Shown here: piece by piece, positions 16,293-31,647 of the stretch
How the letters are laid out: each line of letters begins with the position of its first letter
How positions within the stretch are numbered: the first letter of the stretch is position 1
Assembly: GCA_964596425.1 (NCBI GenBank)
Contig: CAZQTC010000023.1
Location: forward strand, 69,367 to 133,366
Direction: 5' to 3'
Source: an uncultured Spirochaetales bacterium
Lineage (GTDB): Bacteria; Spirochaetota; Spirochaetia; SZUA-6
Length of the DNA: 64,000 nt
Position numbers and translations under genes: made by a program
The notes under the pieces: model-generated
Database searches by the model: none
What the model saw: only the letters and a program-made list of their open reading frames with translations
What the model was told of the DNA's origin: nothing

Positions 16293-17249
16293 CTACCACC
16301 CGTTTTCAGCGGCAATTTTATACAGTTCATCCAACATATTAATATCAAAACCATAGAATTTATAGTTTCTTCTTGCAATATTAAACCAGCTTTTGTCAGG
16401 GGTATCGGCCCCTCTTTCAATCTTTTTTATCTCCATGTAGTTTTTCCCCCTTGCAGAAAATATAGCGGCAAGTCTTGCCGTTGCCTCTATGGATTTGTTC
16501 TCGATAAAGGAGAGGTTACTGTTTAAAGCGCTTTTTAAAAGTGCAGGGGAGGTGTGTTTTAGCTGGTTGGCAAGAATAGTAAATGCCTTTTCTACAAACT
16601 GGGGGTGTACTACTCCAGACTGAATTCCCTCCATCTCTGTAGCATTGTCTACGGTTAAGAGATGTATGGCAACCTTCAATAAGAGGGAAGCCTTGGTAAA
16701 GTTTTTGATTTCTTCTTTGCTCATTGTAAGTTTTTGAACTTTGGTGAGTTCAAAGTAGATATATTCCTTCCTCTCGAAAGATTCATCAATATATCTATCT
16801 GTCAGATTGAGAGAGAGGGAATTAAACGGACCTACGAAGGAACGTCTTGCCTCCAGCTTTATGAATAGACGTTTTAAAAAGGTGAAAATTTCTTCTCTAA
16901 TCGCGGGGAAGTCCCAACTTCTATTCTCCAAAAAACTCAAGAAACCGAAATCGATCGTTTCCTTTATTATCCGTTCGAGTCTTGGAAAAAGAATGGAATT
17001 GCTTTCCTCTATTAATGATTTGAGCAAAAGTTTCCATATGTAATCCCAGTTTTTCCCGTAGAAGAAGTTTTGAGAGGAGAGGGTAGGGTAAAGCTGGTTT
17101 GCATTTAGCTTGAGAAATTGAATTATCTGTTCTTCCCTCTGGAGTATGGGAAATTTGCTTAGGGCGGGGTTTGCCATCAGTCTCTTTATGAAAGCATTTG
17201 CCTTTTCCCGGTCAGTATTCATCAATTTATTATCGGATTTCTCCATCAT
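16293..17249 (-). CDS. Hypothetical protein.
   Basis: A long ORF in an operon with the downstream ion-transport gene. No motif recognised. Confidence 0.4.
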   Translation of the reverse strand: MMEKSDNKLMNTDREKANAFIKRLMANPALSKFPILQREEQIIQFLKLNANQLYPTLSSQNFFYGKNWDYIWKLLLKSLIEESNSILFPRLERIIKETIDFGFLSFLENRSWDFPAIREEIFTFLKRLFIKLEARRSFVGPFNSLSLNLTDRYIDESFERKEYIYFELTKVQKLTMSKEEIKNFTKASLLLKVAIHLLTVDNATEMEGIQSGVVHPQFVEKAFTILANQLKHTSPALLKSALNSNLSFIENKSIEATARLAAIFSARGKNYMEIKKIERGADTPDKSWFNIARRNYKFYGFDINMLDELYKIAAENGW

Positions 17250-17296: not shown

Positions 17297-20200
17297 TTGA
17301 AAATTATATTTAGATATATAATAATTCTTTCTCTCCTTGTTTTCCCCAGATTTTTTTCATGGGGCGAAGATTTTCCTCCCAATCCTGTAACGGTGGTGTC
17401 CCCGGAAGAAGAGGCTCCTCCCGCTCTGTTTGAAACAAGCATAGGTGATGCGGATGTAAATTTTTTCGCCAGTGGATCTTGGGAGACAAGGTTAGCTTTT
17501 GTAACGGGGCTTCTGTTAAGGCCGGGATTCCCTGTTACCTGGCTCGATTCATTTCCTGAAGAGAATGTGGGATTTCTATATGAAAATGACCCCGATTTGA
17601 CTCTTTCCGTTAGGTTAAAGAAAAAATATTTTCTGGAGTTATCCGTGCTCAAGGATTTTAACAAGAATTCCTTTCTCATGGGTTATGAAGGGAAAGGGAA
17701 TGAACCCTTAAGACGTCTCTATATCGGAAATAGAGATATTTCGATACCTCCCCTTCCGTTTATTGATATTCCCGAAGCCGGAAATGCCTCCATAGGGGCA
17801 AGTGCTCTATTGGGTTGGAAAGACGGTGCCAGCCACAGTTTAATGGTGCGTTACGATCTTGAAGAATCGAAGGAGAAGAGTTTTCTGGGGAAGAATGAGA
17901 TAGAGAAAAGAACAATCGATATTGGAAATTACATCAGGGGACGTTACTTTTACCTCCCAGATAGAAATGTGGATAGTTTACGACTCTTTGTCCGGGATTC
18001 GACGGGAGATCTTTTGGGAAGCGACTCTTATAGGTATCGAATTTTAGACCCATCCGAGTATGTTTTTAATAATTCTGCCGGGGAAATTTATTTGAAAAGT
18101 GATCCTGGCGAACGTCTTATTGTGTATTATACCAAGGGTGGAATTAGTGTGGGGGATGGGTCTCTCGGAAAGGCAGCTCTTCCCGGATTTAACGGCACAG
18201 TGTATGATTTTACCCTTCCCCCTGTGAATTTTAACTGGGGCACCACCTACATGGGTATTGATATGAATGATTTAGCCGTTGTGGTGGATGGTAAAAAATG
18301 TTTAATCCTCTGGGATAATGGTAAATTTTCTCCCTTTCAAATCTGTAACACCTATGATATTGGTGAAAACCTACCCGCTGATGCCTCCAAGATTGACATA
18401 AAGTTATATAAAAAGGGTGCCTTTACACCTGAGTCTATTAACGGCAGTTTTGATTTTATCTTTTACCATGATAGAGGAAGTGTAAAGGTTTTACCTAAGA
18501 ACGGAGGAGAATTTGAAGGCAGTGAGAGTTTTAAGCGATATTATCCCTTCTTTGACAGCTCACCGGTTATTTATGGTCCGGAATCCTCAGTTAAGAGGGA
18601 GGAAAGCGGGTATACATTGAAAGTGAGAATACTCACACCGGTTTCAGAGTATTCTCTTGGAGAGGGAGTTATTCCAGGTTCTGTTCATGTAGAGGTAAAC
18701 GGGGTAGAAGAAACGAGATTCAGGGTGAACTACGATACAGGGAAAATAACCTTTCCCTTTGATGTAAAGCCCACAGATTATATAGATATTACATATAAGA
18801 CGGAATCTGCCGGTGCAAGCGGGGGAGATATTCTAGCTGTCTGGGAGAGTAGAATTGATTTGACAAAACTGTTGCAACTAACCATTGGAGGAGGGGTGCG
18901 TTGGAACTTACTTCCCGGTTCCTATACCGTTAACGAAAACTCCAGAACCGGGATGGTTTTGGGGAGTGTGGGGTTAAGTTATAGGAATGATTCCTTCTCT
19001 GCCAGTGGCTCTGTCGCCGTTGGGTATTCCAATCCTAATACTACAGGAACATTACGGGTAGCCGGGATGGATAATAGGGGGGTTGGGATTGAGATTTCCG
19101 AAGATAATATATTCCCCTCAAGTGTTCCGGATCCTGCTTCGTTTGCCTCTGTTGGGGTAGAAGGTATAACGAGGGATACGCGGGGCAAGCTCTTCTATAA
19201 AAATTATAGGAGTTATGGGCCCTTTGGTTCTGTTTCGCTTATATACTACGATGATCCTATTCCAGCGGGTAATGTGTATGATTATAAAACAGGGTCTAAG
19301 TGTGGACCCTATATTGCAGGGGGTAGCTCGACTGGTAGGTCTGGGAAGAGCCTTGTCCTGGATTATTCTATTCCCTCTTCAAAAAAATGGGTGGGGGTAG
19401 AAATACCGATGTCGGGGAAGGGCGGAAGGGATTATTCTTCGATCGATTCCATATCTCTTTCTTTTAAAGGGGACGCGATAAAGGGAAGGGTTAGGGTTTA
19501 TATTCAGATAGGAGAGATCGGAGAGGATTTGGATGGGGATGGGGTACTTGATAGGGAGGGGAGCAAATTTTCATACGGTTTTGATTTTGATGATACTTCA
19601 AATGGGGTTGTCTTGCTTATTGGAGGCGGACCACAGGGAACAGGTAATTTGATTGAGGATAGTGAGGATTTTAACGGTAACGGGTTTTTGGATAGGGACG
19701 ATCCCAATTATATTGTGAGTTTTACCTCACCTCCTACCAATGATTTGCTATCATTTTCTGGCAGTACTGAATGGCGTCGTTATACCTACTTTTTGACGGA
19801 TGCGGAGAGGAAGAGACTTATCGATACGCGCTCTATACGGATAATTGTCCTACGTGAAGATAGCGGAGATGTAAGGGGCAGGATACTTATCGATAGGATA
19901 ACTCTAAATGGTTCTTCTTTTATTGCAAGTTCGTCCTCCGGGCATGTATATACCGAGGAGTTTCCGGAATCCGATCTTTCTCTGGACTGTGTCTCTGTCT
20001 CTAAAAGTTTGGTAGAACTTTTTCCCGAGCTTTCTGGGGTTGTTAATCAGGATACCAGAGAGCAAATGATTCTGGGTATCAGATGGGATTCCGTTTCATC
20101 GAAGGATGGCTTCTCCGTGAGACATTATCTGGCAAATAGTATAGAGAGAGCTGACTATGGTGAACTGGTGTTTTACGCAGGCTACTGTGGCAGTGAAGCG

Positions 20201-22216
20201 GATGGAACTCTCAATTTAAGTTTGGTGGATTCTCTGGGAAGAGGAATACGGGTTTCCCTTGGAATTTCAAGGATATCGGGTGATATTGGGCATGGCTGGC
20301 ATAAAGTAACGGTTGAACTGGAAAAGAAACAGATTTTTGTTGATGGGGTTTTAAGTGGAGAGGGTACGGTTAGTGTTGATAGTGATTCTTCTCCGCTTAG
20401 CGAGCTGAAAATTGGGGTGAGAGATTCTTCTTCCGGATTTCTTTTCCTCGATGAAGTGCTTCTAAAGAGACCGAGTGGTCGGTTGGGAGGGGCTTTTAAG
20501 GCTAATTTGAATTATTCTGTTAAAGGTCCTCTGTATAGTGTAGGAGGAATCGATGTCATCTCCGATCTTAAACTGAGGGTAAGGAGTTTCCTTGAAACCC
20601 CGGGTTTTTCGGCTCTATACGGCATTCCCGGATCGTATTACACCTATTTTTCCTCTTTGGAGAATGAATTTAAACTGTTAGGTAGTGATGTGGGGTTGAA
20701 TCTGTTGGTGAGCGGGCAGGGTGGGAGTGTATATTTTACTATTGGGCATAGCCTTAGGATGCCCGGTTATATAATTCCTCTCTCTTTGAGTGACAGCTAT
20801 TCGGAGAGATTCGGCGGGATAGGAGATTTCTACAAATCGAATGGTATATTTTTGAATTTGCCCGGAGGAAACGAATTTAGATCTAATTTTAAAGCCAGTT
20901 ATTCGGAGGGTATTCTTTCTAGGGAGTGGAGTGGTGGTGTTAATTTTGGTTTTGGGAAATGGGCTAAGAGTAACAGTGAGGTATCTTTCTCGCGTTCGGA
21001 GAAGGGTTATTCTTATAGCCGAAAAGATTATGTGACGAATTGGGTTACAAGTTTCAGGCTTGTAGACCCAACTGTTTTATCTTCTCTACTGGATAGAGAT
21101 GTGAAGATTAAAAATAGGGAAATGATAAACTTATCTGGATTGGGGGTCTTCTCTATTGGTTTAAGAGGGGAGGGAATTGGAGAGGTTCACAGCTTTAATT
21201 TTTCAGGGAATTACCGGGATGCAGGAAATACGTATCAGGTTTCCCTTTCCCTACCTCTTAAGATTGACACTGCTACAGGCTTAACGGTAGAGCCTCGATA
21301 TGAAAGGCTCTTATCCCTTATTGATACGGTAGGATATACGGGGTGTTTTCTCTCCGATGTAAACAATCTCTGGTTAGGTGTTGAAAGCAATTCCTATTTT
21401 TATAGGGCTATTCCGTTTGTTGAGTTATATGACACTTCATTGTTAACCGATGTTGAGAGAAGTGGTGGTTTGTTTGAACAGATTACCTATAAACCATCCG
21501 TTTCACTAACCCTATCCAGAAATTATGGTTCGTATGTGAGAGATTTGTTTTTACCCTCTTCGATGACCCTCGAGTTTAATAGGAGGATTCGAAGTGAGTA
21601 CTCTATTGTTACTCAGGATTTTACGAGTGGTGTAAAGTTAAAGACCATGGCGATAAATCTTTTTGGAAAACTTGGTGCATATAGGTACTTTGATTTTTAT
21701 AGGACAGACGAGTTCGATTCTTCTCTCTCTCTCGAATTAAGGGGTAATGGGGAGGGTGAGGTAGATAGTTATACCTTCGGAATTATTCACTATGTCAACT
21801 TGGTAGGGAACAGAAATGAATACTCTCTCCAGAACAATCTTACTTTGGAGGGTGATTGGAGGGGTGAAATACTGGAGCGTATCAAAGATACACTGGATTT
21901 GAGCTTTAAGTGGCGGACTGATTATGTCCCCTTTCTCTTTAAGAAGTTGCTTCCGGATAATTGGGCTGATGTTAGTTTTCTTGAAAATGAGGAGAATCTT
22001 CGCTATATTTATTTGAGTAGAGATTCTGGAGATACGTTGCTTCCGGTCAGTCTTATTTTTGAGCATTGGACAAAATTGAGGGTGGAAAAGAGAGGCTTTA
22101 TAGGGATAAATATAGGTACGGGTTTCTCTATGGAGGATAGTAATTCCGCGGTATTGTCTCAGAGTCTTTACAGAATATTTTTCAAGGTGGGTTTAAGGGC
22201 CAAAATTACTTTCTAA
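17297..22216 (+). CDS. Giant (1639 aa) secreted or outer-membrane protein of unknown function.
   Basis: TTG start and signal peptide 'IIILSLLVFPRFFSWG'. Gly/Ser/Tyr-rich, beta-rich composition. Calcium-binding-like loops 'DLDGDGVLDREG' and 'DFNGNGFLDRDD'. C-terminus '...VGLRAKITF' has an alternating-hydrophobic pattern and a terminal Phe. Confidence 0.6.
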   Translation: MKIIFRYIIILSLLVFPRFFSWGEDFPPNPVTVVSPEEEAPPALFETSIGDADVNFFASGSWETRLAFVTGLLLRPGFPVTWLDSFPEENVGFLYENDPDLTLSVRLKKKYFLELSVLKDFNKNSFLMGYEGKGNEPLRRLYIGNRDISIPPLPFIDIPEAGNASIGASALLGWKDGASHSLMVRYDLEESKEKSFLGKNEIEKRTIDIGNYIRGRYFYLPDRNVDSLRLFVRDSTGDLLGSDSYRYRILDPSEYVFNNSAGEIYLKSDPGERLIVYYTKGGISVGDGSLGKAALPGFNGTVYDFTLPPVNFNWGTTYMGIDMNDLAVVVDGKKCLILWDNGKFSPFQICNTYDIGENLPADASKIDIKLYKKGAFTPESINGSFDFIFYHDRGSVKVLPKNGGEFEGSESFKRYYPFFDSSPVIYGPESSVKREESGYTLKVRILTPVSEYSLGEGVIPGSVHVEVNGVEETRFRVNYDTGKITFPFDVKPTDYIDITYKTESAGASGGDILAVWESRIDLTKLLQLTIGGGVRWNLLPGSYTVNENSRTGMVLGSVGLSYRNDSFSASGSVAVGYSNPNTTGTLRVAGMDNRGVGIEISEDNIFPSSVPDPASFASVGVEGITRDTRGKLFYKNYRSYGPFGSVSLIYYDDPIPAGNVYDYKTGSKCGPYIAGGSSTGRSGKSLVLDYSIPSSKKWVGVEIPMSGKGGRDYSSIDSISLSFKGDAIKGRVRVYIQIGEIGEDLDGDGVLDREGSKFSYGFDFDDTSNGVVLLIGGGPQGTGNLIEDSEDFNGNGFLDRDDPNYIVSFTSPPTNDLLSFSGSTEWRRYTYFLTDAERKRLIDTRSIRIIVLREDSGDVRGRILIDRITLNGSSFIASSSSGHVYTEEFPESDLSLDCVSVSKSLVELFPELSGVVNQDTREQMILGIRWDSVSSKDGFSVRHYLANSIERADYGELVFYAGYCGSEADGTLNLSLVDSLGRGIRVSLGISRISGDIGHGWHKVTVELEKKQIFVDGVLSGEGTVSVDSDSSPLSELKIGVRDSSSGFLFLDEVLLKRPSGRLGGAFKANLNYSVKGPLYSVGGIDVISDLKLRVRSFLETPGFSALYGIPGSYYTYFSSLENEFKLLGSDVGLNLLVSGQGGSVYFTIGHSLRMPGYIIPLSLSDSYSERFGGIGDFYKSNGIFLNLPGGNEFRSNFKASYSEGILSREWSGGVNFGFGKWAKSNSEVSFSRSEKGYSYSRKDYVTNWVTSFRLVDPTVLSSLLDRDVKIKNREMINLSGLGVFSIGLRGEGIGEVHSFNFSGNYRDAGNTYQVSLSLPLKIDTATGLTVEPRYERLLSLIDTVGYTGCFLSDVNNLWLGVESNSYFYRAIPFVELYDTSLLTDVERSGGLFEQITYKPSVSLTLSRNYGSYVRDLFLPSSMTLEFNRRIRSEYSIVTQDFTSGVKLKTMAINLFGKLGAYRYFDFYRTDEFDSSLSLELRGNGEGEVDSYTFGIIHYVNLVGNRNEYSLQNNLTLEGDWRGEILERIKDTLDLSFKWRTDYVPFLFKKLLPDNWADVSFLENEENLRYIYLSRDSGDTLLPVSLIFEHWTKLRVEKRGFIGINIGTGFSMEDSNSAVLSQSLYRIFFKVGLRAKITF

Positions 22217-22278
22217 TTTAATTGGAAGTAGTTAGGATTAAGTGTTATAATTCTAAGTGAATTTAAGGAGGTTTCTAG

Positions 22279-23643
22279 ATGAAAAGAGAAAGGCTTAAGA
22301 TATTAATTTTAACTCTTTTTGTTACTTTTCTGTTTGTTCTTCCTGTGTGGTCAGAGGATAGTGGAAAAGCCTTTGATATGGGAATGTCCATGGTTATTGG
22401 TACCCAGTCTTTTGTGGAAAACGGGGCTACCGTAACCTATCAAACTTTGAGTTTTCATCCGGATATTGCTTTTGGAAAAGTGGGAATAGGGTTGGATGTT
22501 ACTCTTCACTATAATTTTACCGGTGGGCCTGATAGTAATCAGTTTCATATTAGAGAGGCCGACTGGATTCCCTCTGAGCCAGTAACCTTTTCAAAGGTGC
22601 TTGGATTGTACCTTCCCCTAATACGGTACGTACGTTACGGTGAGAAGGGAGATCCTATCTATGCTAAATTTGGGGCTATTGATGATGCCACTTTGGGAAA
22701 TGGTTTTATTATGAGTAATTATTCCAATACTCAGTATCTTCCGGAGAAAAAAATTTTTGGTCTAAGTTTTGATCTGGATGGTAGACTCTTCAATTTCCCA
22801 TACGTTGGTTTTGAGTCTGTGATAGGTAATCTCTCCCTGTTTGATGTAGTTGGTGTAAGATTGTTTGCGAGGCCTCTGCTATTTCTCAATATACCCATTA
22901 TTAAGAATATCGAATTTGGCACAACCTATGCCACGGATACGGATGTTTATGCTTTTGAAAATGAACAAACGGGTGGAAGCGAGAAGGGAAGTGTTTATGC
23001 CTATGGAATGGATTTTAGGCTTCCTATTTTGTCCAATCCTGTTGTTTCCCTCGCCACCTTTGGTGATATAGCATCTATTGAGAGTAAATCTGTTGGGGGG
23101 ATGCTTGGTTTTGGTGGACGATTGATAAGTATATTTACGTATGGTGCTCAGTTGAGAATGCTCGGGGAGAATTTTATTCCAAGTTATTTCGATCAGACCT
23201 ATGATTTGTATAGGACGGTTAAGTATCAACTTGTGGAGACAACTAATGCTATTCCTGGATATGTGGGATGGTTCGCCAGTGCAGGTACATCTCTGCTTGA
23301 TGATAGTATTATATTTAATGTGAGTCTGGATGGACCCTTTGGTACGGTTTCTAGTGATACGGATAGTTTTGTAAATTATCCCCATTTAGTAGGGATGTTT
23401 ATTATCAAAGATAACCTCCTTAAGGGGTTTTCCTTTGATGCAAGTTATGACAAAAAGCTTATAAAGAGTTTTAGAGACCTTATCAGTCCTGAGGATGCGG
23501 TTATTCAAGCTCGTTTGAACTATAAGACAGGTCCTGCAATGATCTCGTTTGTTTATAAGATAAGGTATGTGGCTAATCCAGGACCGGGGGAGAATCCATG
23601 GCAGGTAACCTCGGGATTGGAGAGCTCAATTCAACTTTTTTAG
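22279..23643 (+). CDS. Secreted protein, putative outer-membrane beta-barrel. It is a paralogue of the C-terminal domain of the next gene.
   Basis: Signal peptide 'ILILTLFVTFLFVLPVWS'. 'FGAIDDATLGNGFIMSNYSN' aligns with 'IGNLNDITIGHGLLMRNYAN' of the downstream gene. Terminal Phe. Confidence 0.6.
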   Translation: MKRERLKILILTLFVTFLFVLPVWSEDSGKAFDMGMSMVIGTQSFVENGATVTYQTLSFHPDIAFGKVGIGLDVTLHYNFTGGPDSNQFHIREADWIPSEPVTFSKVLGLYLPLIRYVRYGEKGDPIYAKFGAIDDATLGNGFIMSNYSNTQYLPEKKIFGLSFDLDGRLFNFPYVGFESVIGNLSLFDVVGVRLFARPLLFLNIPIIKNIEFGTTYATDTDVYAFENEQTGGSEKGSVYAYGMDFRLPILSNPVVSLATFGDIASIESKSVGGMLGFGGRLISIFTYGAQLRMLGENFIPSYFDQTYDLYRTVKYQLVETTNAIPGYVGWFASAGTSLLDDSIIFNVSLDGPFGTVSSDTDSFVNYPHLVGMFIIKDNLLKGFSFDASYDKKLIKSFRDLISPEDAVIQARLNYKTGPAMISFVYKIRYVANPGPGENPWQVTSGLESSIQLF

Positions 23644-23658
23644 GAATTGGAGGTAAAT

Positions 23659-25905
23659 ATGAGAAAGATAGCTATAGCTTTGATTTTAATTTTGTTCCTC
23701 GTGATGCCAGTTATCCTCTTTGCTCAGGAGAGTAAGGCTGGAAACGGAGAAGAAAACGTAGCCCTTCTTGAGTACTTTGAGGATTCGAGTGGTGCCTTTA
23801 GGATTGTTACAGCTGATGGTAAAGAGATTTATTCGCAGGATCTCTACTTTGGGTATGAAATACCTGTGGGTGCTACCATTGTGACAGAGGCTGGTGATTA
23901 TGCTGAGGTTTCGCTGGATCCCAATGGCTCTATTATAAAGGTAGCCGAGAATACAAACTTTAAGATTGTAAGCCTTCAAAAAACTGACGGAAGCGGTGAA
24001 AATGCCTTCTCTATTGCGGTTGGAAAGTTTAGAGCTGTGGCTGGGAGGCTTACAGGGAATGAGAAGTACGTTTTTAAGGGTCCATCGGCCGTTTGTGGTG
24101 TTAGGGGGACGGATTTAGGTATGGAGGTTCTCCCCGGCCAGAAGGAGATTGCCTTTGTATTGGATGGTTTGATTGATTATACCAATGCTGCGGGGAAGAA
24201 AATAGAGATTGGTGCGGGGATGATGGCTGATGCTCTGGCAAAGAGTTTCAAACCCATTCAAATTCCCCCGAATGTACTCTCTGATCTTATGAAGGGCCTT
24301 GAGTTTAAAAAACTTAAACCGGAGAGTGTCCCCGGACATAAACCTGCACCCAAAGCTACGGAGGCCAAGGGTGAGGCGAAAAAAACTGAAGCAGTTCCTC
24401 CACCTCCCCCTGCGGAGAAAAAACCTGCAGTAAAGAAGGAGGAGGTTAAGAAAAAGGCTGAGAATGCCTTCATGGCGGGTATCTATGAAAAGCTCAGGGA
24501 AATCCTGGGGATGGAGATAGGTTCTGTTACAATAGATGGTGTAACCTATTCCAAAGCAGTATTGCAACCTCACTTTACCATTGGGAAGTTAAAGATGGCT
24601 CTATATTTGCCAATTATCTACAAGACGGATATGCTTAATCCGGATGACTGGTACCATCCCAAGGGGAATAATGAGTGGTCCTTTGGAACCGATCAGTCCG
24701 GGTGGGGCGAGAAAGCAATGGATTTCTTGAATGACCTTGCCCTTAAGATCCGGTATGTAGAGTGGGGGAAGCAAAGGGATAAGTTTTTCTTTAAGATTGG
24801 GAATTTAAATGATATTACAATTGGGCACGGACTCTTGATGAGGAACTATGCAAATGATACCGATTTTCCCTCTGTGAGACGTGTTGGGCTTAATCTCGGG
24901 ATAGATTTCAATTTTATGGGTTTTGAAGCGATGGTTAACGATATAGGTGATCCTGAGATTTTTGGTGGAAGGCTCTATTTCAGACCGATACCTGTTTTCC
25001 CAATGGCGGTAGGGATGACTGTTCTTACCGACGTCTCGCCTGCATCGGAGTTGCCTGATCCGACTGTTGTTGGCGATCCCATGCTTTTCAACCTTGGGCT
25101 TGATCTTGATTTTCCGATTATTGAAACGGATTTCTTCAGTATAGTTTCTTTCGCTGATATCGGTGGAATGCTCCCATGGCTCCGCTATCCTCTTTATGAT
25201 GCGAATGGTGTTGTTGTACAGGCAGGTCCTCAGTGGGATGCTTTGCTTGTAAAGGATGAAACCAATCCTGATAATCCCCCCTCTTTGAAAAATTACGGTA
25301 TTGCGGCAGGTCTCTTTGGAAATATTGCAGTATTTAACTGGCGACTTGAGTATAGAAATTTCAACGGTACCTTTAGACCTGCTTTTTATAACCAGTTGTA
25401 CGACAGAGAGAGGGTGACTTACGTTACAGAGATAGCCCAGTATCTGGAGAATCCTAATGCTCCGGAGTATCAACACCAGACGATGGGTGTGTACGGCGAG
25501 GGTGGATTTGCTATAAAGAAGCTCTTCTCCCTTGAGGGTGGATACTTCTGGCCATGGTATATGGAAAACGGCAAGATCAATATGGGTGATAACGATATGC
25601 TCCACTTAAAGTTTTCACTTGAGCCAGGGGTAATACCTGTAGTTGGGGTGTACGGTTCGATTTCGTATGATAGAACAAAATTTATTCCGACATTACTCAG
25701 TGGAGCATCTGAGGGTCTAAGTCTCTTTGATGCCAATACGGTGGTTTCTGCTGAGTTGGTATATCCTGTAGCTCCTACTCTGGATGTTTCAATTCTCTAT
25801 ACAACCACTCTTAAACGCGATAGTAGTGGGGCGGTTATTCTGGATGATAACGGTAATCCGACAATCTCTACCACGGTTAGCATTGAAACAAAGGTACACT
25901 TTTAG
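23659..25905 (+). CDS. Secreted protein with an N-terminal FecR-like domain, a Pro/Lys-rich linker and a C-terminal putative outer-membrane beta-barrel domain.
   Basis: ATG at 23659 after GGAGG. Signal peptide present. 'AVCGVRGTDLGMEV' resembles the FecR RGTxF motif. Linker 'PAPKATEAKGEAKKTEAVPPPPPAEKKPAVKKEEVKKK'. C-terminus 'SIETKVHF' is beta-signal-like. Confidence 0.6.
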   Translation: MRKIAIALILILFLVMPVILFAQESKAGNGEENVALLEYFEDSSGAFRIVTADGKEIYSQDLYFGYEIPVGATIVTEAGDYAEVSLDPNGSIIKVAENTNFKIVSLQKTDGSGENAFSIAVGKFRAVAGRLTGNEKYVFKGPSAVCGVRGTDLGMEVLPGQKEIAFVLDGLIDYTNAAGKKIEIGAGMMADALAKSFKPIQIPPNVLSDLMKGLEFKKLKPESVPGHKPAPKATEAKGEAKKTEAVPPPPPAEKKPAVKKEEVKKKAENAFMAGIYEKLREILGMEIGSVTIDGVTYSKAVLQPHFTIGKLKMALYLPIIYKTDMLNPDDWYHPKGNNEWSFGTDQSGWGEKAMDFLNDLALKIRYVEWGKQRDKFFFKIGNLNDITIGHGLLMRNYANDTDFPSVRRVGLNLGIDFNFMGFEAMVNDIGDPEIFGGRLYFRPIPVFPMAVGMTVLTDVSPASELPDPTVVGDPMLFNLGLDLDFPIIETDFFSIVSFADIGGMLPWLRYPLYDANGVVVQAGPQWDALLVKDETNPDNPPSLKNYGIAAGLFGNIAVFNWRLEYRNFNGTFRPAFYNQLYDRERVTYVTEIAQYLENPNAPEYQHQTMGVYGEGGFAIKKLFSLEGGYFWPWYMENGKINMGDNDMLHLKFSLEPGVIPVVGVYGSISYDRTKFIPTLLSGASEGLSLFDANTVVSAELVYPVAPTLDVSILYTTTLKRDSSGAVILDDNGNPTISTTVSIETKVHF

Positions 25906-25938: not shown

Positions 25939-27663
25939 ATGGAAACTAGAGATACAACCCGGAGGATTCATATCCTCCGGGATGAAGTAGCACGGAAAAT
26001 TGCGGCCGGCGAGGTAATCGACCGGCCTTTTTCTGTTGTAAGAGAGCTTTTGGATAATTCGATAGATGCCAATAGTAAAAATATAGAGGTACGGATTGTA
26101 GGGGGAGGAATCGAGGAAATTCGTGTTAGGGATGATGGTATAGGAATGAGCAGGGCGGATCTTGAGGTGTGTTACTTGAGTCATGCAACCTCCAAGATCG
26201 AGGACATTGCTGATATTTACCGAACCCAAACACTTGGGTTTAGGGGGGAGGCCCTCTCGAGTATTGCTACCTGTTCGCGCCTTGAGATTGTTAGTAGAGA
26301 ACAAAATGCGGATTATGCTCATAGGCTTGTTGTTGAGGGGGGGAGGCTTGTAGAGTTACAGAAATCGGCTGGAGTTGCAGGAACAACGGTTTCTGTCTCA
26401 AAATTATTCTATAATATGCCAGCGCGAAGGGGTTTTTTAAAGAGTAAGTCATCCGAGAGTTTTATGTGTAAATCTGTCTTTTTGGAAAAAGCACTTCCAT
26501 TTCCGGAAATATCCTTCAAATTTTTTTCTAATGAAAAATTGAGTATTTTTTTACCTCCCTCTGGATTACTTGAGAGAGTTTTTAATGCCTATGGTGATTT
26601 GCTTGTAAGAGAATTATTGATGTACGATGAGTATGAGAGAGGTGATGTTAAAATACGACTTGTTGCGGGGGATCCATCCCTTATGCGAAGGGATAGGAAG
26701 TTTATTCAAATATTTATCAATGGTAGGAGAGTAAATGAGTATTCTCTCATAAAGGTTGTTGAGTACAGTTTTTCCGGTTACGTACCTGGAGGATATTACC
26801 CTGTATGTTTTGTATTTATTGAGATAAATCCGAAATTGGTGGATTTTAATGTCCATCCGGCCAAAAAAGAGGTTAAATTAAGGAATCTGTCACTTATAAA
26901 AGCTTCTGTAGTTGAGGTTATTTCCAGAAATATGCGGAAACTTAAAATAAAGGTTGGGGGAGAGAAATTTCCCACAGGATCCAGTGTTGATACGATGACA
27001 TATAAGCGAGCTGATAGTGGGGTGTTGGATGGACTGGAAGGGATTGATAGTCCCCCGATAAAATTTTTTTTGAGTGAGGCCGTGTTCGGGAGGGATAGAA
27101 ATGAAAATGAATCACTGTCCAGTGGGGAGATCAGGTATTTGGGGCAAATATTTAATCTTTTTCTATTAGCTGTTTACAGAGATACACTTCTCGTAGTTGA
27201 TCAACATGCTGCCCACGAGCGTATACTGTTTGATGAATTGATGGAGAAACCCTTGGTGTCTCAAGAATTGCTCTTTCCTATATATTTTAGTGTCGAGGGA
27301 GGGAATGAACTTTCTGAGGAACAGATAGAAAATTTCAATTCTCTGGGTATAAAGATAAACAGGGTAGCCTCCCGTAGGTATGAAATAGTATCTCTACCCG
27401 AGGATTTTCTTGTTCTAGAGGAAAGTGAGCTTATTGATTTAGTAAAAGAGACTCGTAGTGACACTGAAGGTCTCAAGAGGAAAATACTGGATAGTGTGGC
27501 GTGTAAGATGGCTATTAAGGAAGGTGAAACCATCGATGAAATTACGGCTATTTCTCTTCTGGAAAGAGCCGTTGCATTGAAGGATGCAAGGTGTCCCCAT
27601 GGAAGGCCAATATGGTTTTCTATTTCGAGGAGTGAACTTCTTAGAATCGTCAAACGATTGTAG
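25939..27663 (+). CDS. mutL: DNA mismatch repair protein MutL.
   Basis: GHKL ATPase N-terminus 'AAGEVIDRPFSVVRELLDNSIDA' and 'GFRGEAL'. Confidence 0.9.
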   Translation: METRDTTRRIHILRDEVARKIAAGEVIDRPFSVVRELLDNSIDANSKNIEVRIVGGGIEEIRVRDDGIGMSRADLEVCYLSHATSKIEDIADIYRTQTLGFRGEALSSIATCSRLEIVSREQNADYAHRLVVEGGRLVELQKSAGVAGTTVSVSKLFYNMPARRGFLKSKSSESFMCKSVFLEKALPFPEISFKFFSNEKLSIFLPPSGLLERVFNAYGDLLVRELLMYDEYERGDVKIRLVAGDPSLMRRDRKFIQIFINGRRVNEYSLIKVVEYSFSGYVPGGYYPVCFVFIEINPKLVDFNVHPAKKEVKLRNLSLIKASVVEVISRNMRKLKIKVGGEKFPTGSSVDTMTYKRADSGVLDGLEGIDSPPIKFFLSEAVFGRDRNENESLSSGEIRYLGQIFNLFLLAVYRDTLLVVDQHAAHERILFDELMEKPLVSQELLFPIYFSVEGGNELSEEQIENFNSLGIKINRVASRRYEIVSLPEDFLVLEESELIDLVKETRSDTEGLKRKILDSVACKMAIKEGETIDEITAISLLERAVALKDARCPHGRPIWFSISRSELLRIVKRL

Positions 27664-27674
27664 GATATTCTCTG

Positions 27675-29504
27675 CTATAGACCTGATATTATCTTTTGCA
27701 CTTCATTCTTTTTACTGTAGTTAGGATTTTTTTTCAGAAGGGTTGTAAGAAGCGATTTCGCTGTCTTTTTCTTTCCCTCCTTTATTAGGATTAATCCCAG
27801 TTGATAGTATGCATCCCAATAATTTGGGTCGATTTTAATTAGCTCGGAGAATGCCTGGAACGCACTGTTTAGTTGGTTTAATTCCAGATAGGAAAGCCCT
27901 AAATTATATCGGGGAAGTGTTGCACTAGGATTTAATGCAATAGCCTTTGAGAGGTGTTTTATACTATCCTGATACAATCCCTTATGGAGATATACGTTTC
28001 CGAGATTGTTGTTTACGGCATATGAACTTGGGGCGATTTGATAGGCATACGTCAAAATCTCTAACGCCTTGTCGTACAATCCGTTATCGTCGTAGATTTT
28101 ACTCAGATTTATTCTTGGTTTTAGATAGTTTTTGTCAATTTTTATCGCTTTGGTGTAGTATTGGATTGCTTTATCCTTGTCACCAAGCATTTCGCAGGCA
28201 AGCCCGGCGGTATAGTTGTAAATTGCAGAAGCGGGATCCAGTTGGGCGGCCTTTTCGGCGAAGGGTTTGGCCTTTTGGGGTTTGTTTAATTTTATGTAAA
28301 CGTTAGCAAGGTTGTAGTTTGTTGGAGGATGGTTTGGATCTATTTTTAATGCCTTTAAAAAGTAAGTTTCCGCCTCTCTGTATTTTCCTATCGAGGATAG
28401 GGCGGTGGCGTAACTTCTTAGGAGTATTGGGTTATTGGGTTTGTATGAGAGTGCCTTTCCAAATTCCTGTACAGCCTGGTTTATATTACCCTTTTCTGTT
28501 AGTAAGATTCCCTTTTCGTAGTATGCCTCTGCGAAGTCTCTCTTGTACTTTATTGCCAGGTCAAATTCTGTTATTGCTTTGTCTTTCTCTCCAAGTTTGG
28601 TAAGTGTTTTCCCCTTCCTATAATGAGCCTGGGGAAAATCCGGTTTTATATGAAGGCAACTTGTGAAGGATTGGAGAGCGTCACTGTACTGTTTGGCATA
28701 GTACTGCATCTTGCCTAGAGAGTAAAGGATTGTATAGTCTTCCGGGTTGAGTCTGGAGGCCTCTTTGTACTCTTTTATAGCATTTTGGTAGTTCTTTGTT
28801 TTTTCGTATATTTTGCCCAGGGTTAAATGTGGGACCCATAGGTTTGGGTTTTTTTGAATGGCTTCATGTGAAAATTCTATTGCCTTTTGTATGTTTTCTG
28901 GATTGTTGGGGTTTTCCTCAAGGTATGAAAGCCCTATGTAAGCATAAGCCTCTCCTATGTTTGGATCCAGATTTATTACCGAATTAAAGGTGTCTCGGGC
29001 ATTGCGGTACTCTTTATTATTTATCTGTTTAATACCCTTGGAGATCAGGTCATTTATCTTTCGAATTTTATTTCTCTCTTTTTGTGAGGCGCTCTGGGGA
29101 ATTTTTTTTGGTTTTTCCTTTATTACAATTTGTTGCTTTTCCTTGCTTTCCTGTATGGTTTCTCCTAATTTTGACAGACTTTTTTTGAGCTGCTCATTCT
29201 GTTTTTTTAACAGTTCTTCCTCACTTTTTTTCTGTTTTTCCTCTGCAAGTTTTTTCTTTTGAATGATTTGGTTGAGCAGTTTTTGTGCATCGCTGTCGTT
29301 TGGATTTTTAATAAGTAAATTATCTACCAGTTGCATTGCTCTTTCATATTCACCGCTATTCATGTACCTCTTTGCCAATTTAAGTACGTTAAGTCTTTCG
29401 GCGTGAGCTTTTTTGGCGATTTCCGATTTTACTATTAGCCCTCCTCCAATAAGAAGGAGTAGTAGTAAAACAATTGTACCAATTACGATTACTTTTTTAT
29501 TCAA
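27675..29504 (-). CDS. TPR-repeat protein with an N-terminal TM anchor and coiled-coil.
   Basis: N-terminal 'VIVIGTIVLLLLLLIGGGLIV', a Lys/Glu-rich coiled-coil, then more than 10 TPR-like repeats (recurring Y..LG..Y....Y..A). Confidence 0.7.
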   Translation of the reverse strand: MNKKVIVIGTIVLLLLLLIGGGLIVKSEIAKKAHAERLNVLKLAKRYMNSGEYERAMQLVDNLLIKNPNDSDAQKLLNQIIQKKKLAEEKQKKSEEELLKKQNEQLKKSLSKLGETIQESKEKQQIVIKEKPKKIPQSASQKERNKIRKINDLISKGIKQINNKEYRNARDTFNSVINLDPNIGEAYAYIGLSYLEENPNNPENIQKAIEFSHEAIQKNPNLWVPHLTLGKIYEKTKNYQNAIKEYKEASRLNPEDYTILYSLGKMQYYAKQYSDALQSFTSCLHIKPDFPQAHYRKGKTLTKLGEKDKAITEFDLAIKYKRDFAEAYYEKGILLTEKGNINQAVQEFGKALSYKPNNPILLRSYATALSSIGKYREAETYFLKALKIDPNHPPTNYNLANVYIKLNKPQKAKPFAEKAAQLDPASAIYNYTAGLACEMLGDKDKAIQYYTKAIKIDKNYLKPRINLSKIYDDNGLYDKALEILTYAYQIAPSSYAVNNNLGNVYLHKGLYQDSIKHLSKAIALNPSATLPRYNLGLSYLELNQLNSAFQAFSELIKIDPNYWDAYYQLGLILIKEGKKKTAKSLLTTLLKKNPNYSKKNEVQKIISGL

Positions 29505-29524: not shown

Positions 29525-30208
29525 TTAATCCTGAATATCTATGTCTTCATAGTCCTGCTGAATTTTTTCTGAACCGGCAGATAGGTTTTTTGTATCTTCA
29601 GATGCATTTTTGAGCGAGTTTAGAACCTCGTTCATTAAGGCTTTTTGTTTTGCCAATTCTTCCTCTCGTTTTTTCTCCTCCTCGGCTATGATACCGTTTA
29701 AGATATTAATAAGTTTTTCTATTTTATCCCTCTGAGGAGATTCCGGCTTTAATCTGAGATAGATTATGTAGTCAGAAACAGCCTCTTTGAATTTATTCTG
29801 TTTCAGTCTTGCGTTTGCTCTATTGAGGTATGCCTCTGGTATCTCTTTATTTATCTTGATAGCTTCACTATACATATCCTCGGCAAGAGAGAATTGCTTT
29901 TTCCTGAAGAAGTTGTTTCCCATGTTGTAGTATAGTAAGTCTTTTACGGATGTGGCTACATTTAACCCTCTTCTCATTATTTTGGTGGATTTATCTATTT
30001 CCCCTAGTTGATCATATACCATGCCAAGATAGAGGTATATTTTTTCGTTGGTAGGATCCTCGTTTAGAGCCGCTTCAAGAAGGGGAGCACTCTGTTTGGG
30101 TTTATTCTCCAGGAATAGTTTTTCTCCCTCCTCCAGGTATGAGGATGAAAAACTTGGAAGGATGGATACGGATAGTATTAAAATGCTTAAAATTACTTTG
30201 GGTTTCAT
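29525..30208 (-). CDS. Secreted TPR-repeat protein.
   Basis: Signal peptide, TPR repeats and a C-terminal coiled-coil. Confidence 0.65.
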   Translation of the reverse strand: MKPKVILSILILSVSILPSFSSSYLEEGEKLFLENKPKQSAPLLEAALNEDPTNEKIYLYLGMVYDQLGEIDKSTKIMRRGLNVATSVKDLLYYNMGNNFFRKKQFSLAEDMYSEAIKINKEIPEAYLNRANARLKQNKFKEAVSDYIIYLRLKPESPQRDKIEKLINILNGIIAEEEKKREEELAKQKALMNEVLNSLKNASEDTKNLSAGSEKIQQDYEDIDIQD

Positions 30209-30288: not shown

Positions 30289-31647
30289 ATGTCTGGTTTT
30301 GTTGTTCTGGTTATAATACTCGGCAGTGTGCTCGGGTTATTGACAGTTTTTATTATTAAAAGTTTCATTACTCCTCAAAGGATAAGCTCTCTGGAGAACC
30401 TTATCAAGAAGGGAAGATACACCCAGGCAATAAGACTTGCAAAACAGTTAATAGCTAAAGATCCTCACAATATGGATGCCCATTACTATCTTGGGCTTGC
30501 TTACCTTAGGGATGGAAAAGAAGAACTGGCCCTAATGGAGTGGAAGAAGGTTAATGAAATTGGCGATTTCTCTGGGGCTATAAGGGAGATCCCCTTTAGG
30601 AAACAGATTGCGGAACTCTACGCTAGGTTTAATCAGTTGGACGAGGCTCTTAAAGAGTACCTTTTGTTGATAAAGGCTCAGCCCTCCGAAGCAGTTTACT
30701 ATTATAAGGCTGGTGAGCTCTTTGAAATGAAGGGCAAGGCCCCTAAAGCGGTATCTTTCTATATGAAGGCTGTTGAACTTGATAAGAGATTTGCCAAGGC
30801 CCATTACAAATTAGGGGTCCTCTTTTATAGACATAAAAAACCTCTTGAGGCTAAGAGAGAACTGGAATTGGCGGTTAAGTTAGAACCGGAAAACTATAAA
30901 GCCTATTACTACCTGGGGAAGCTGTTAAAAGACGAGAAGAATTATCCCGAAGCTTTAAAGATGTTTGAGAGGGCCCAACGAGATCCTGAATTGAAGGTGA
31001 AGGTCTTAATTGAGCGAGGAACATGCTATATGAGTATGAATAATTTTGATAGGGCAATACCGGAACTCGAGAGAGCAATAAATAATCTATCAACTGAATC
31101 AAGCAACGAGGCACTGTATGCAAGATATTTCCTTGCATACTGCTATGAGAAAAAGCGGGATATAGATAAAGCAATAGCCCAGTGGGAAAAGATATACTCT
31201 AAAAAGCCTACCTTCAGGGATGTTGCTGAGAAACTCTCCCAATATCAGGAACTTCGGGCTGATGATAGAATGAAGGATTATCTTACCTCGCCGAAGGATC
31301 ATTTTTTTGAGTTGTGTAGAAAGATTGTAGAGGGTATGAAATTAAAAATCCAAGATATGAAAGAGATACCCAATGGGTGTGAAATTGTTGCCGTGGAACA
31401 GGAAACTAAATGGCGGAACGCAAGAAAGATGCCCCGAATTATCCAGTTTTATAGGACTCCCGATATTTTGGATGAAATAACTGTTAGGAATTTGCATGAG
31501 AAGATGAAAAAATCAAATATAACGCGTGGGGTTATTATTACGAGTTCAACATTTTCACGAAGCGCATACTCATATGCGGAGACTCGACCTATTGATTTGT
31601 ACAACAAGGGGAAACTTCAGGAACTTCTAAGAATGGTTGATATCTGA
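30289..31647 (+). CDS. Membrane-anchored TPR protein with a C-terminal Mrr-type restriction-endonuclease-like (Mrr_cat) domain.
   Basis: N-terminal TM 'FVVLVIILGSVLGLLTVFII' and about 8 TPRs. The C-terminus 'FFELCRKIVEGM...GVIITSSTFSRSAYSYAETRPIDLYNKGKLQELL' matches the Mrr_cat fold pattern. Confidence 0.55.
   Translation: MSGFVVLVIILGSVLGLLTVFIIKSFITPQRISSLENLIKKGRYTQAIRLAKQLIAKDPHNMDAHYYLGLAYLRDGKEELALMEWKKVNEIGDFSGAIREIPFRKQIAELYARFNQLDEALKEYLLLIKAQPSEAVYYYKAGELFEMKGKAPKAVSFYMKAVELDKRFAKAHYKLGVLFYRHKKPLEAKRELELAVKLEPENYKAYYYLGKLLKDEKNYPEALKMFERAQRDPELKVKVLIERGTCYMSMNNFDRAIPELERAINNLSTESSNEALYARYFLAYCYEKKRDIDKAIAQWEKIYSKKPTFRDVAEKLSQYQELRADDRMKDYLTSPKDHFFELCRKIVEGMKLKIQDMKEIPNGCEIVAVEQETKWRNARKMPRIIQFYRTPDILDEITVRNLHEKMKKSNITRGVIITSSTFSRSAYSYAETRPIDLYNKGKLQELLRMVDI

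Follow-up and report, generated by a model that had tools for sequence, protein, structure and literature searches.

The window analysed here is a 64,000-nucleotide stretch of a contig from an uncultured Spirochaetales bacterium, and the genes under study form a trio on its + strand. The first gene, ORF1 (17297..22216, + strand), encodes a protein of 1,639 aa with a signal peptide, a large N-terminal region and an OMP-like C-terminus (...GLRAKITF). Two EF-hand-like loops in the N-terminal region follow the pattern D-x-D/N-x-D/N-G, one at aa 744-752 and the other at aa 791-799. No Pfam match was found in 18 members of the ORF1 family and no PDB sequence match for ORF1, and the ORF1 profile showed no similarity to ORF2 or ORF3 outside the signal peptide. 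The second gene, ORF2 (22279..23643, + strand; 454 aa), has a Shine-Dalgarno sequence, AAGGAGG (22265..22271, + strand), 7 nt before its ATG, as read from the sequence. Its product consists of a signal peptide (aa 1-25; MKRERLKILILTLFVTFLFVLPVWS followed by ED, with cleavage predicted between ...LPVWS and ED) and, from aa ~33 to 454, a predicted beta-barrel domain of ImpL63-like type that stands alone and ends in ...SSIQLF. For the third gene, ORF3 (23659..25905, + strand; 748 aa), ATG 23659 is the most likely start, in preference to TTG 23647, because a GGAGG (23649..23653, + strand) lies 5 nt upstream of this ATG and database gene calls give 748 aa. Apart from this start, the coordinates of the first-pass annotation were correct. 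If the start is taken at TTG 23647, ORF3 has 752 aa. The mutL gene (25939..27663, + strand; Pfam DNA_mis_repair, MutL_C and HATPase_c_3) follows 33 nt downstream of ORF3. The other neighbours of the trio in the window encode an ion-channel protein, a 318-aa unassigned protein and TPR proteins, and no substrate hint was found among the genes neighbouring the trio.

The first-pass annotation had proposed, from strings aligned by eye, that ORF2 and ORF3 share a domain of ~400 aa, and had named E greater than 1e-3 as the value that would speak against it. In the top BLASTP HSP, ORF2 52-324 aligned with ORF3 299-605 (numbered from TTG 23647) with 24% identity, 72 bits and E=2e-17; the quoted strings are present in the sequence and form the core of this HSP. 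Comparison of the two family profiles by hhalign (32 sequences per family) gave a probability of 99.9% and E=1.5e-33 over 396 columns. The alignment spans ORF2 35-452 and ORF3 282-747 (numbered from ATG 23659), which means that mature ORF2 in its entirety corresponds to the complete C-terminal domain of ORF3. The two genes are therefore true paralogues. The size of the common domain had been slightly underestimated, as it comprises ~420 aa in the former and ~465 aa in the latter. A tblastn search of the full window returned the same reciprocal match and no third paralogue.

When 54 genomes were compared, 26 columns had an identical residue, mostly G/P/D/N, in at least 90% of both families, and the same-residue columns common to both families cluster in ORF2 132-280. 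Within the ORF2 barrel domain, conservation peaks in YLPLIRYVRYGEKGDPIYAKFGAIDDATLGNGFIMSNYSN (aa 111-150; 22609..22728, + strand), a segment that contains invariant columns and columns shared with ORF3. Its counterpart in ORF3, as aligned by BLASTP and hhalign, is ALKIRYVEWGKQRDKFFFKIGNLNDITIGHGLLMRNYAND (24736..24855, + strand), and in both barrels the best-conserved part carries the motif G-x-[IL]-x-D-x-T-[LI]-G-[NH]-G-[FL]-[IL]-M-x-N-Y. AF2 modelled the conserved segment as a helix and four short strands, so that it probably does not span the membrane. On these models, the segment would probably be a functional plug or interface of both barrels and not part of the membrane-spanning wall.

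While ORF2 is a signal peptide plus the domain alone, ORF3 carries the domain behind a FecR-like domain and a linker, as had been proposed; this architecture is supported by the AF2 model, Foldseek and Pfam matches in family members. After the signal peptide of ORF3 (MRKIAIALILILFLVMPVILFA followed by QE), the FecR-like beta-sandwich domain (aa 34-191, ATG numbering; 23758..24231, + strand) begins ~10 residues later, with no other helix or domain ahead of it in the AF2 model. It was modelled with a pLDDT of 80-94 and matched 4m0n (BDI_1681), 4m0h and 6ovk_R (PupR) in Foldseek, with a TM(target) of 0.50-0.54 and an rmsd of 3.1-4.0 Å over 143-144 columns. The ORF3 of the window itself gave no Pfam match at E<=1, FecR included, but Pfam FecR (PF04773) was detected in 16 of the 17 aligned family members (best E 1.1e-12), and most database homologues have a precomputed PF04773 match. 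The NCBIfam models Lsa33 and LipL45 also match members of the ORF3 family. A disordered Pro/Lys/Glu/Ala-rich spacer (aa 231-280; 24349..24498, + strand; AF2 pLDDT <50) follows, composed of 24% E, 16% P and 14% A. Its length varies, since the interval from GVRGTD to EIGS was 105-218 aa in the 23 ORF3 homologues that yielded both motifs. The predicted C-terminal barrel domain (aa 282-748; 24502..25902, + strand), which is paralogous to all of mature ORF2 according to hhalign, AF2 and Foldseek, ends in ...ETKVHF.

The Pfam matches in the homologues, the PupR fold match and the database name 'FecR family protein' could suggest that ORF3 is a FecR anti-sigma regulator acting with a TonB-dependent transducer. 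In FecR and PupR, this module binds proteins in the periplasm and makes contact with a barrel protein of the outer membrane; in FecR, it sits behind an anti-sigma domain and is held by an inner-membrane anchor. In ORF3 the domain has the same fold as the FecR/PupR periplasmic domain (PF04773), but it comes after a cleavable N-terminal signal peptide and has a covalent link to a predicted barrel instead of an inner-membrane anchor; a cytoplasmic anti-sigma domain and a single transmembrane helix are missing. No ECF sigma factor or TonB-dependent receptor gene was found in the neighbourhood in the window or in three other genomes. As the architecture contradicts it, a role of ORF3 in FecR-type signalling is extremely improbable.

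The common domain had also been taken for a beta-barrel, and the AF2 models, which are all-beta, favour this. ORF2 was modelled with a pLDDT of 82, a pTM of 0.71 and ~19 long beta-strands, and ORF3 with a pLDDT of 81.7 and ~19 long strands, the barrel strands lying within 285-746. Among the PDB matches listed by Foldseek were AlgE, OprD, Wzi and porins for the ORF2 model, and AlgE, LptD and MOMP for the ORF3 barrel; FimD was also among the listed outer-membrane barrels. All listed matches are outer-membrane barrels or reported to be so (CdiB), except for FecR-type domains at ranks 30, 39 and 40 for ORF3. AlgE ranked first for the two models, at E 6e-7 and 9e-9. TM-scores of the AlgE/OprD/Wzi-type matches were low (0.35-0.41, at ~9% identity); for AlgE and Wzi the values were 0.33-0.42, with an rmsd of 11-15 Å.

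The sequences of the families are consistent with an outer-membrane location. All ORF2 and ORF3 homologues have an N-terminal hydrophobic signal peptide, the best 12-mer having a median of 11/12 hydrophobic residues, and a lipobox-like motif was found in only 1 of 74 ORF2 and 1 of 61 ORF3 homologues. Beyond the signal peptide, no hydrophobic helix is present in the AF2 models of ORF2 or ORF3. The predicted strands carry aromatic residues and are amphipathic (13/19 in ORF2 and 12/19 in ORF3). A terminal Phe is found in 65/74 ORF2, 39/61 ORF3 and 28/40 ORF1 homologues (ORF1 consensus G-I-E-G-K-L-x-F), and in all three families hydrophobic residues alternate ahead of it. The remaining homologues mostly end in Y, M or L or are truncated ORF calls. 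This combination of signal peptide, amphipathic strands and conserved terminal Phe is in keeping with BAM substrates. For both ORF2 and ORF3, the most likely route is export through Sec followed by insertion into the outer membrane through BAM.

The only named family with detectable similarity to the common domain points elsewhere. This family is ImpL63 of Leptospira (NCBIfam NF047543, 'cytoplasmic membrane protein ImpL63'), whose model was matched by 27 of 35 ORF2/ORF3 family members (best E 2.9e-9). The proteins of the window scored 20.9 bits (ORF2) and 25.4 bits (ORF3) in partial, collinear alignments (ORF3 368-450 to model positions 90-174; ORF2 226-312 to 294-383). With the equivalog cut-off at 1000 bits, such low scores indicate a remote relative and not an orthologue; no full-length score above 1000 bits was obtained, and ORF2 and ORF3 were rejected as ImpL63 equivalogs. 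The two proteins thus represent anciently separated paralogues within a single predicted beta-barrel family, which lacks a Pfam model and is remotely related to ImpL63. Like ORF2, ImpL63 (~525 aa) is a stand-alone protein. ImpL63 is also the only relative with experimental data. In Leptospira it serves as an inner-membrane/protoplasmic-cylinder marker; it was not extracted by Triton X-114 and was poorly surface-biotinylated (PMC2698987, PMC2780356), whereas ORF2 and ORF3 are predicted outer-membrane barrels. This marker use is the chief argument against placing the two proteins in the outer membrane.

Alternatively, as reported for ImpL63, the family could reside at the cytoplasmic membrane or cell cylinder, for instance by an uncleaved signal anchor or by binding peptidoglycan, and the modelled 'barrel' would be a soluble or peripheral beta structure. 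Barrel closure is only predicted, which leaves room for this, as do the fractionation of ImpL63 with the protoplasmic cylinder and its NCBIfam name. However, the signal peptide is the sole hydrophobic helix, the strands are amphipathic and bear aromatic residues, the C-terminal Phe signal is conserved and the listed structural neighbours other than FecR-type domains are all outer-membrane barrels. Moreover, the Leptospira study that examined ImpL63 found OmpL36 and OmpL37, which are proposed to span the outer membrane, to be largely insoluble in Triton X-114 as well, so the assay is not decisive for ImpL63. We consider a cytoplasmic-membrane location decidedly unlikely.

The shared domain had been ascribed to an in-cluster duplication. 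Paralogy and adjacency are confirmed, but a local or recent event is not. In an NJ tree of 54 Spirochaetia genomes, the ORF2 and ORF3 families formed two clean, reciprocally monophyletic clades. Identity across the families was 23.3%, and ORF2/ORF3 pairs from the same genome were no closer (23.8%). Together, these results show that the duplication is ancient; on the sequences compared, it predates the divergence of all 54 genomes. Adjacency and a common strand would be the point in favour of a recent duplication. A recent local duplication, gene conversion or a chance or compositional similarity can practically be dismissed in view of E=1.5e-33, the 23% identity, the two-family tree and same-genome pairs that are no closer than cross-genome pairs.

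In all 66 loci with enough downstream sequence, both copies were present and ORF3 immediately followed ORF2, so that the pair, whose conservation had been put forward as a check, is indeed conserved. An ORF1 homologue lies directly upstream of the ORF2 homologue in 52 of 53 loci; this membership of ORF1 in the conserved unit was absent from the first-pass annotation. The trio is flanked by the same or by unrelated genes in S. thermophila, Gracilinema and a Treponema-like MAG, and it is retained in Gracilinema and Treponema-like genomes though all flanking genes differ. In most Spirochaetaceae, mutL is syntenic with the trio without belonging to the invariant unit; it is found downstream in most loci, but not in those labelled Treponema sp. 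or Gracilinema caldarium. With the conserved-segment motifs alone, a relative was retrieved in 335 species genomes, and none of 622 ORF2 homologues had a Pfam match. ORF1-ORF2-ORF3 is thus a conserved, unstudied envelope gene cluster of spirochaetes and not the product of a recent duplication.

Tandem paralogues often remain linked through inheritance alone, and monomeric channels (AlgE, OprD, OmpG) are among the listed Foldseek matches. ORF2 and ORF3 could accordingly be separate, sub-functionalised porin-like or substrate-specific channels that are adjacent only because of tandem duplication in one operon and contact neither each other nor ORF1. Yet the adjacency in 66/66 and the ORF1 link in 52/53 loci persist across deep divergence and full turnover of the flanks, and reciprocal monophyly with both copies in all 66 loci argues that both are needed. 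The mean pairwise distance of both barrels (0.85) is also lower than that of MutL (0.99), a degree of conservation that is unusual for surface channels. We regard independent channels as unlikely. The pairwise distances of ORF2 and ORF3 correlate (partial r=0.61 after controlling for MutL in 27 genomes; 0.18-0.36 for other pairs). Together with the strict co-occurrence of the two genes, this correlation is the only indirect support for the hetero-oligomer suggested in the first-pass annotation, and it could stem from structural or compositional constraints common to paralogues and not from interaction.

On balance, and with modest confidence, we favour a reading in which ORF2 and ORF3 are both subunits of an outer-membrane assembly peculiar to spirochaetes, and the FecR-like domain of ORF3 is a tethered periplasmic adaptor. 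From the strict linkage we infer that the proteins interact physically: ORF2 and ORF3 would probably form a fixed pair in the outer membrane, together with the giant ORF1, in an envelope assembly specific to spirochaetes. ORF2 would provide the bare barrel, and ORF3 the same barrel with the FecR-like beta-sandwich held in front of it by the flexible E/P-rich spacer. This domain probably acts as a protein-binding adaptor that reaches through the periplasm to the cell wall, to ORF1 or to a partner in the inner membrane. A more far-reaching version, to which we give little weight, is that the trio is an unrecognised spirochaete-specific outer-membrane machine, in which a heteromeric ImpL63-like barrel pair works with a 1,600-aa barrel-ended giant and the FecR-like domain on its extensible spacer links the outer membrane with a periplasmic partner or the cell cylinder, as an envelope tether or translocon in bacteria that have no Lpp-type tethers and keep their flagella in the periplasm. 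On this version, ImpL63, long used as an inner-membrane marker, would belong to an outer-membrane barrel family.

Among known systems, the best structural matches are the monomeric 18-stranded barrels of AlgE, OprD and Wzi (400-460 aa), and the likeness holds only at the level of a large outer-membrane barrel. ORF2 and ORF3 might be AlgE/Wzi-type pores exporting an envelope glycan or polymer, with ORF1 as a surface or periplasmic scaffold, given that AlgE was the top match for both models, that Wzi was also listed and that ORF1 has Ca-binding-like loops as in many surface or glycan-associated proteins. Against this, neither ORF2, ORF3 nor the family members searched matched the Alginate_exp (PF13372) or Wzi Pfam models, the rmsd exceeded 11 Å and the conserved unit includes no glycosyltransferase, polymerase or AlgK/TPR-lipoprotein partner. 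We consider polymer export very unlikely, and membership in the AlgE/Wzi families was rejected, as no sequence model matched and TM-scores of 0.33-0.42 lie under the criterion of TM>0.5.

LptD combines an N-terminal periplasmic OstA beta-jellyroll with a C-terminal 26-stranded barrel and has LptE as its partner. Full-length ORF3 aligned with it as a two-part 'beta domain + barrel' protein (Foldseek ranks 7, 9 and 12; TM ~0.2). The N-terminal domain of ORF3 is, however, FecR-like and not OstA-like, a long disordered spacer separates the parts and an LptE-like partner is missing. With a TM of ~0.2 and no LptD/OstA model among the Pfam/NCBIfam matches, ORF3 was rejected as an LptD. LipL45, Lsa33 and Lsa19 are FecR-domain proteins of Leptospira; LipL45 is named a lipoprotein by NCBIfam, whereas ORF3 has no lipobox.

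In a search seeded with a Treponema-like ORF3, no named host-associated Treponema was among the best 120 matches. In T. pallidum, TP0304 immediately precedes mutL (TP0303), an order that would mirror that of ORF3 and mutL. Unlike in the trio, TP0305 is pyrG, so that no ORF2 or ORF1 neighbour lies beside TP0304. Another candidate is TP0484, which is annotated as a FecR-domain protein and adjoins the 374-aa fibronectin-binding TP0483. TP0304 bears a variable short-repeat tract and has been modelled as an N-terminal non-barrel region followed by a C-terminal OMP-like barrel (2026 preprint). Compared by description only, TP0304 and TP0484/TP0483 are leads. Were the trio an outer-membrane machine of the kind outlined above, TP0304 might be the pathogen's equivalent of ORF3.

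The ORF listing of the window, which stems from the genome of an uncultured member of Spirochaetota, gave three co-directional genes followed by mutL. ORF1 (17297-22216, + strand), the gene of a secreted protein of 1,639 aa, is separated by 62 nt from ORF2 (22279-23643, + strand, 454 aa), a bare predicted barrel. A gap of 15 nt lies between ORF2 and ORF3, which combines a FecR-like domain, a spacer and a predicted barrel, and 33 nt lie between ORF3 and mutL (25939-27663, + strand). An AAGGAGG site is found 7 nt 5′ of the ATG of ORF2. For ORF3, the listing mechanically placed the start at TTG 23647 (752 aa), which overlaps a GGAGG ribosome-binding site located 5 nt 5′ of ATG 23659. ATG 23659 is most probably the true start, with a product of 748 aa, and the ORF3 gene calls in public assemblies have this length, consistent with it. 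Promoter and terminator scans remained at shuffle level and were uninformative.

The first-pass annotation had proposed that ORF2 and ORF3 have a domain of ~400 aa in common, which arose by duplication within the cluster. When the two proteins were compared by BLASTP, a single strong HSP was obtained (ORF2 52-324, ORF3 299-605; 24% identity, E=2e-17), which includes exactly the strings quoted in that annotation. Comparison of the family profiles, built from 32-sequence alignments, with hhalign extended the match to ORF2 35-452 and ORF3 282-747 (probability 99.9%, E=1.5e-33), so that all of mature ORF2 matches the whole C-terminal domain of ORF3 (ORF3-C). Both alignments were significant, which confirms the common domain and excludes chance similarity, but the domain is somewhat larger than proposed. 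A tblastn search over the whole window returned the reciprocal ORF2/ORF3 match only, and therefore no third paralogue is present in this stretch. ORF1 was ruled out as such a paralogue: its similarity in BLASTP and hhalign is confined to the signal peptide.

When one genome per GTDB species was scanned with motifs, an ORF2 relative was detected in at least 335 species genomes. The 80 loci that were kept all belong to Spirochaetota (Spirochaetales, Sediminispirochaeta, Marispirochaeta, Gracilinema and environmental 'Treponema sp.'). In all 66 loci with enough flank the ORF2 homologue is immediately followed by an ORF3 homologue, and in 52 of 53 it is immediately preceded by an ORF1 homologue. 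In the exception, L045 (1-9900), unrelated minus-strand genes precede the ORF2-ORF3 pair in place of an ORF1 homologue. The gene order of the window recurs in Spirochaeta thermophila DSM 6192. In Gracilinema and in a Treponema-like MAG the trio is intact, while the flanks are entirely different and do not contain mutL. Among the best 120 matches of a homology search seeded with a Treponema-like ORF3, only environmental Treponema and Gracilinema-type proteins were present and no named host-associated Treponema.

A neighbour-joining tree of the 54 genomes in which both genes are complete separated ORF2 and ORF3-C cleanly into two families. Identity within the families was 48-49%, compared to 23.3% between ORF2 and ORF3-C, and pairs from the same genome were no closer (23.8%). 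The clean split and the distance between same-genome pairs argue for an ancient duplication, with no sign of gene conversion, and exclude a recent one. The proposed in-cluster origin stood and the pair is conserved as two families, but the description was misleading as to age.

To what kind of protein the common domain belongs was approached with predicted structures. AlphaFold2, supplied with the family alignments, produced confident models. That of ORF2 (pLDDT 82, pTM 0.71) consists of a signal-peptide helix followed by ~19 long beta-strands, with residues 104-148 modelled as a helix and four short strands. The ORF3 model (pLDDT 81.7) starts with a signal peptide, followed by a beta domain (34-191); pLDDT falls below 50 at 231-280, and at 285-746 the predicted strand pattern of ORF2 returns. 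In Foldseek searches against the PDB both models matched almost exclusively outer-membrane barrels, the exceptions being matches to FecR-type domains. AlgE was the top match of each model (E 6e-7 and 9e-9); OprD, Wzi, porins, LptD and FimD came next. Since the TM-scores of the barrel matches were only 0.35-0.41 with an rmsd above 11 Å, we take the matches to indicate a 'large outer-membrane barrel' without assigning the proteins to any of these families, and read ORF2 and ORF3-C as predicted large outer-membrane barrels. An AlgE-like exporter role is possible in view of the top match; no gene in the conserved trio names a substrate.

The sequences of the homologues are in line with such barrels. 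A hydrophobic N-terminal signal sequence is present in every homologue, there are practically no lipoboxes, clear amphipathicity is seen in 12-13 of the 19 long strands, and a C-terminal Phe after alternating hydrophobic residues is common to the ORF1, ORF2 and ORF3 families. These features fit putative BAM substrates. Conservation peaks, in both barrel families, where the helix and the short strands are modelled: ORF2 111-150 and ORF3 ~360-400 carry the motif G-x-I-x-D-x-T-L-G-[NH]-G-[FL]-[IL]-M-x-N-Y. Such conservation suggests a putative functional site or an interface rather than a membrane-spanning wall.

Searches of Pfam and NCBIfam with the three window proteins gave only weak ImpL63, Lsa33 and LipL45 matches and otherwise no significant family, and neither single proteins nor profiles matched any PDB sequence. 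A representative library was searched with a profile of 691 positions and returned 680 representatives at E<=1e-30; the number rose to 2,579 at E<=1e-10 and to 17,248 at E<=1e-3. Because this profile included the FecR domain, the weak tail is uninformative on the barrel family; it probably consists of FecR-only proteins.

For the barrel family there is no Pfam model, and the one member that has been studied is a remote relative, the Leptospira protein ImpL63 (NF047543). No other named family resembles the barrel domain in sequence. For L. interrogans, PMC13046716 gives WP_011670051 as ImpL63. The ImpL63 model was matched by 27 of 35 family members (best E 2.9e-9), and the matches of the window ORF2 and ORF3 are collinear, with scores well short of the equivalog cut-off. 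No function is known for ImpL63, which serves as a marker of the inner membrane or protoplasmic cylinder because it is insoluble in Triton X-114 and poorly biotinylated at the surface (PMC2698987, PMC2780356). This use is the main evidence against an outer-membrane location of ORF2 and ORF3, and a location elsewhere, as reported for ImpL63, is possible. However, other proposed outer-membrane-spanning proteins were likewise largely detergent-insoluble in the same study. The present result raises the question of whether ImpL63, the standard Leptospira 'inner-membrane marker', has been assigned to the right compartment.

We compared evolutionary distances in 27 genomes with complete genes. The mean corrected distance was 0.85 for both barrels, 0.99 for MutL and 1.9 for ORF1. 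The distances of ORF2 and ORF3-C were correlated (r=0.76), with a partial r of 0.61 after removal of the MutL (phylogeny) signal, compared to 0.18-0.36 for the other pairs. This fits evolution under shared constraint, but the evidence is weak, since structure or composition could also make paralogues co-vary. The best-supported reading is that ORF2 and ORF3 are two anciently diverged subunits of one putative spirochaete-specific outer-membrane assembly that would also involve ORF1; independent channels are possible.

ORF1 showed no relationship in Pfam, NCBIfam, PDB or profile searches to anything tested, and no domain was found in its homologues with Pfam. Its N-terminal part carries a conserved motif, P-E-E-E-A-P-x-x-L-F, and its C-terminus is OMP-like. 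Two EF-hand-like D-x-D/N-x-D/N-G-x-x-D loops are encoded at 19526-19552 and 19667-19693, and at least two such loops were present in 17 of 40 homologues. One NCBI gene call (1,607 aa) is 32 residues shorter than the ORF starting at TTG 17297 and would remove the signal peptide. Divergent from ORF1 lies the gene of a 318-aa protein without Pfam domain (16293-17249, - strand). A homologue with 31-64% identity occupies the same position in many loci, and none was detected in those labelled Treponema sp. or Gracilinema. Beyond mutL, three TPR proteins are encoded: one of 609 aa (27675-29504, - strand) that has a hydrophobic segment at its N-terminus and a stretch rich in Lys and Glu, one of 227 aa (29525-30208, - strand) and one of 452 aa (30289-31647, + strand) with a C-terminal Mrr_cat restriction-endonuclease-like domain. 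This block is also present in S. thermophila. Cumulative GC skew rises almost monotonically across 1-64000, and Rfam, tRNA and tandem-repeat scans of the whole 64-kb window found nothing.

The N-terminal part of ORF3 had been described as a FecR-like domain and linker. The window ORF3 has no Pfam FecR match at E<=1; 16 of 17 aligned family members match Pfam FecR (best E 1.1e-12), and all 17 match the Leptospira FecR-domain models Lsa33 and LipL45. The modelled domain superposes on BDI_1681 (4m0n) and PupR (6ovk) at 3.1-4.0 Å over ~144 residues. The spacer is Pro/Lys/Glu-rich in the window and rich in E, P and A across homologues, and it varies in length, as the interval from GVRGTD to EIGS spans 105-218 aa in the 23 homologues with both flanking motifs. 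Taken together, these matches, the fold and the spacer show that the description was correct. In the proposed assembly this domain would act as a tethered periplasmic adaptor.

Little is understood about the outer membranes of spirochaetes, and inventories of their proteins drive vaccine work on syphilis, leptospirosis and Lyme disease. Paralogy alone is ordinary; the interest lies in an envelope cluster that has not been studied, whose three genes are strictly conserved and one of which encodes an unusual fusion of a FecR-like domain to a predicted barrel. The trio is a candidate core envelope component, and its barrel proteins are more conserved than the adjoining housekeeping MutL, which is unusual for outer-membrane proteins. 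With this fusion, a link across the periplasm becomes a concrete hypothesis that can be tested. No description of a FecR-like domain, flexible spacer and outer-membrane barrel, always with a bare paralogue, was found in the libraries and literature searched.

In T. pallidum, TP0304, which adjoins mutL, resembles ORF3, and TP0483/TP0484 resemble the ORF2-ORF3 arrangement, in both cases by position and architecture only, compared by description. A 2026 preprint presents TP0304 as a new OMP candidate with a predicted non-barrel N-terminal region and a C-terminal barrel. TP0304 is flanked by pyrG and carries a variable short-repeat tract. TP0484 is annotated as FecR-domain protein, and the adjoining TP0483 binds fibronectin, its outer-membrane location being disputed. 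TP0304 and TP0484 are leads as possible relatives. A link between TP0483 and ORF2 is not claimed, as the peptides that a vaccine paper gives for Tp0483 did not convincingly match the ORF2 motifs. The domains in 4m0n and 6ovk are periplasmic domains of anti-sigma regulators, which the ORF3 domain resembles in fold. In contrast to the FecR anti-sigma system, ORF3 has neither a cytoplasmic anti-sigma domain nor a single transmembrane helix, an architecture that contradicts a FecR signalling system, and neither an ECF sigma factor nor a TonB-dependent transducer was found nearby in the window and three other genomes. We class ORF2/ORF3 as a paralogous pair of predicted outer-membrane barrels, one of which has a putative periplasmic accessory domain.
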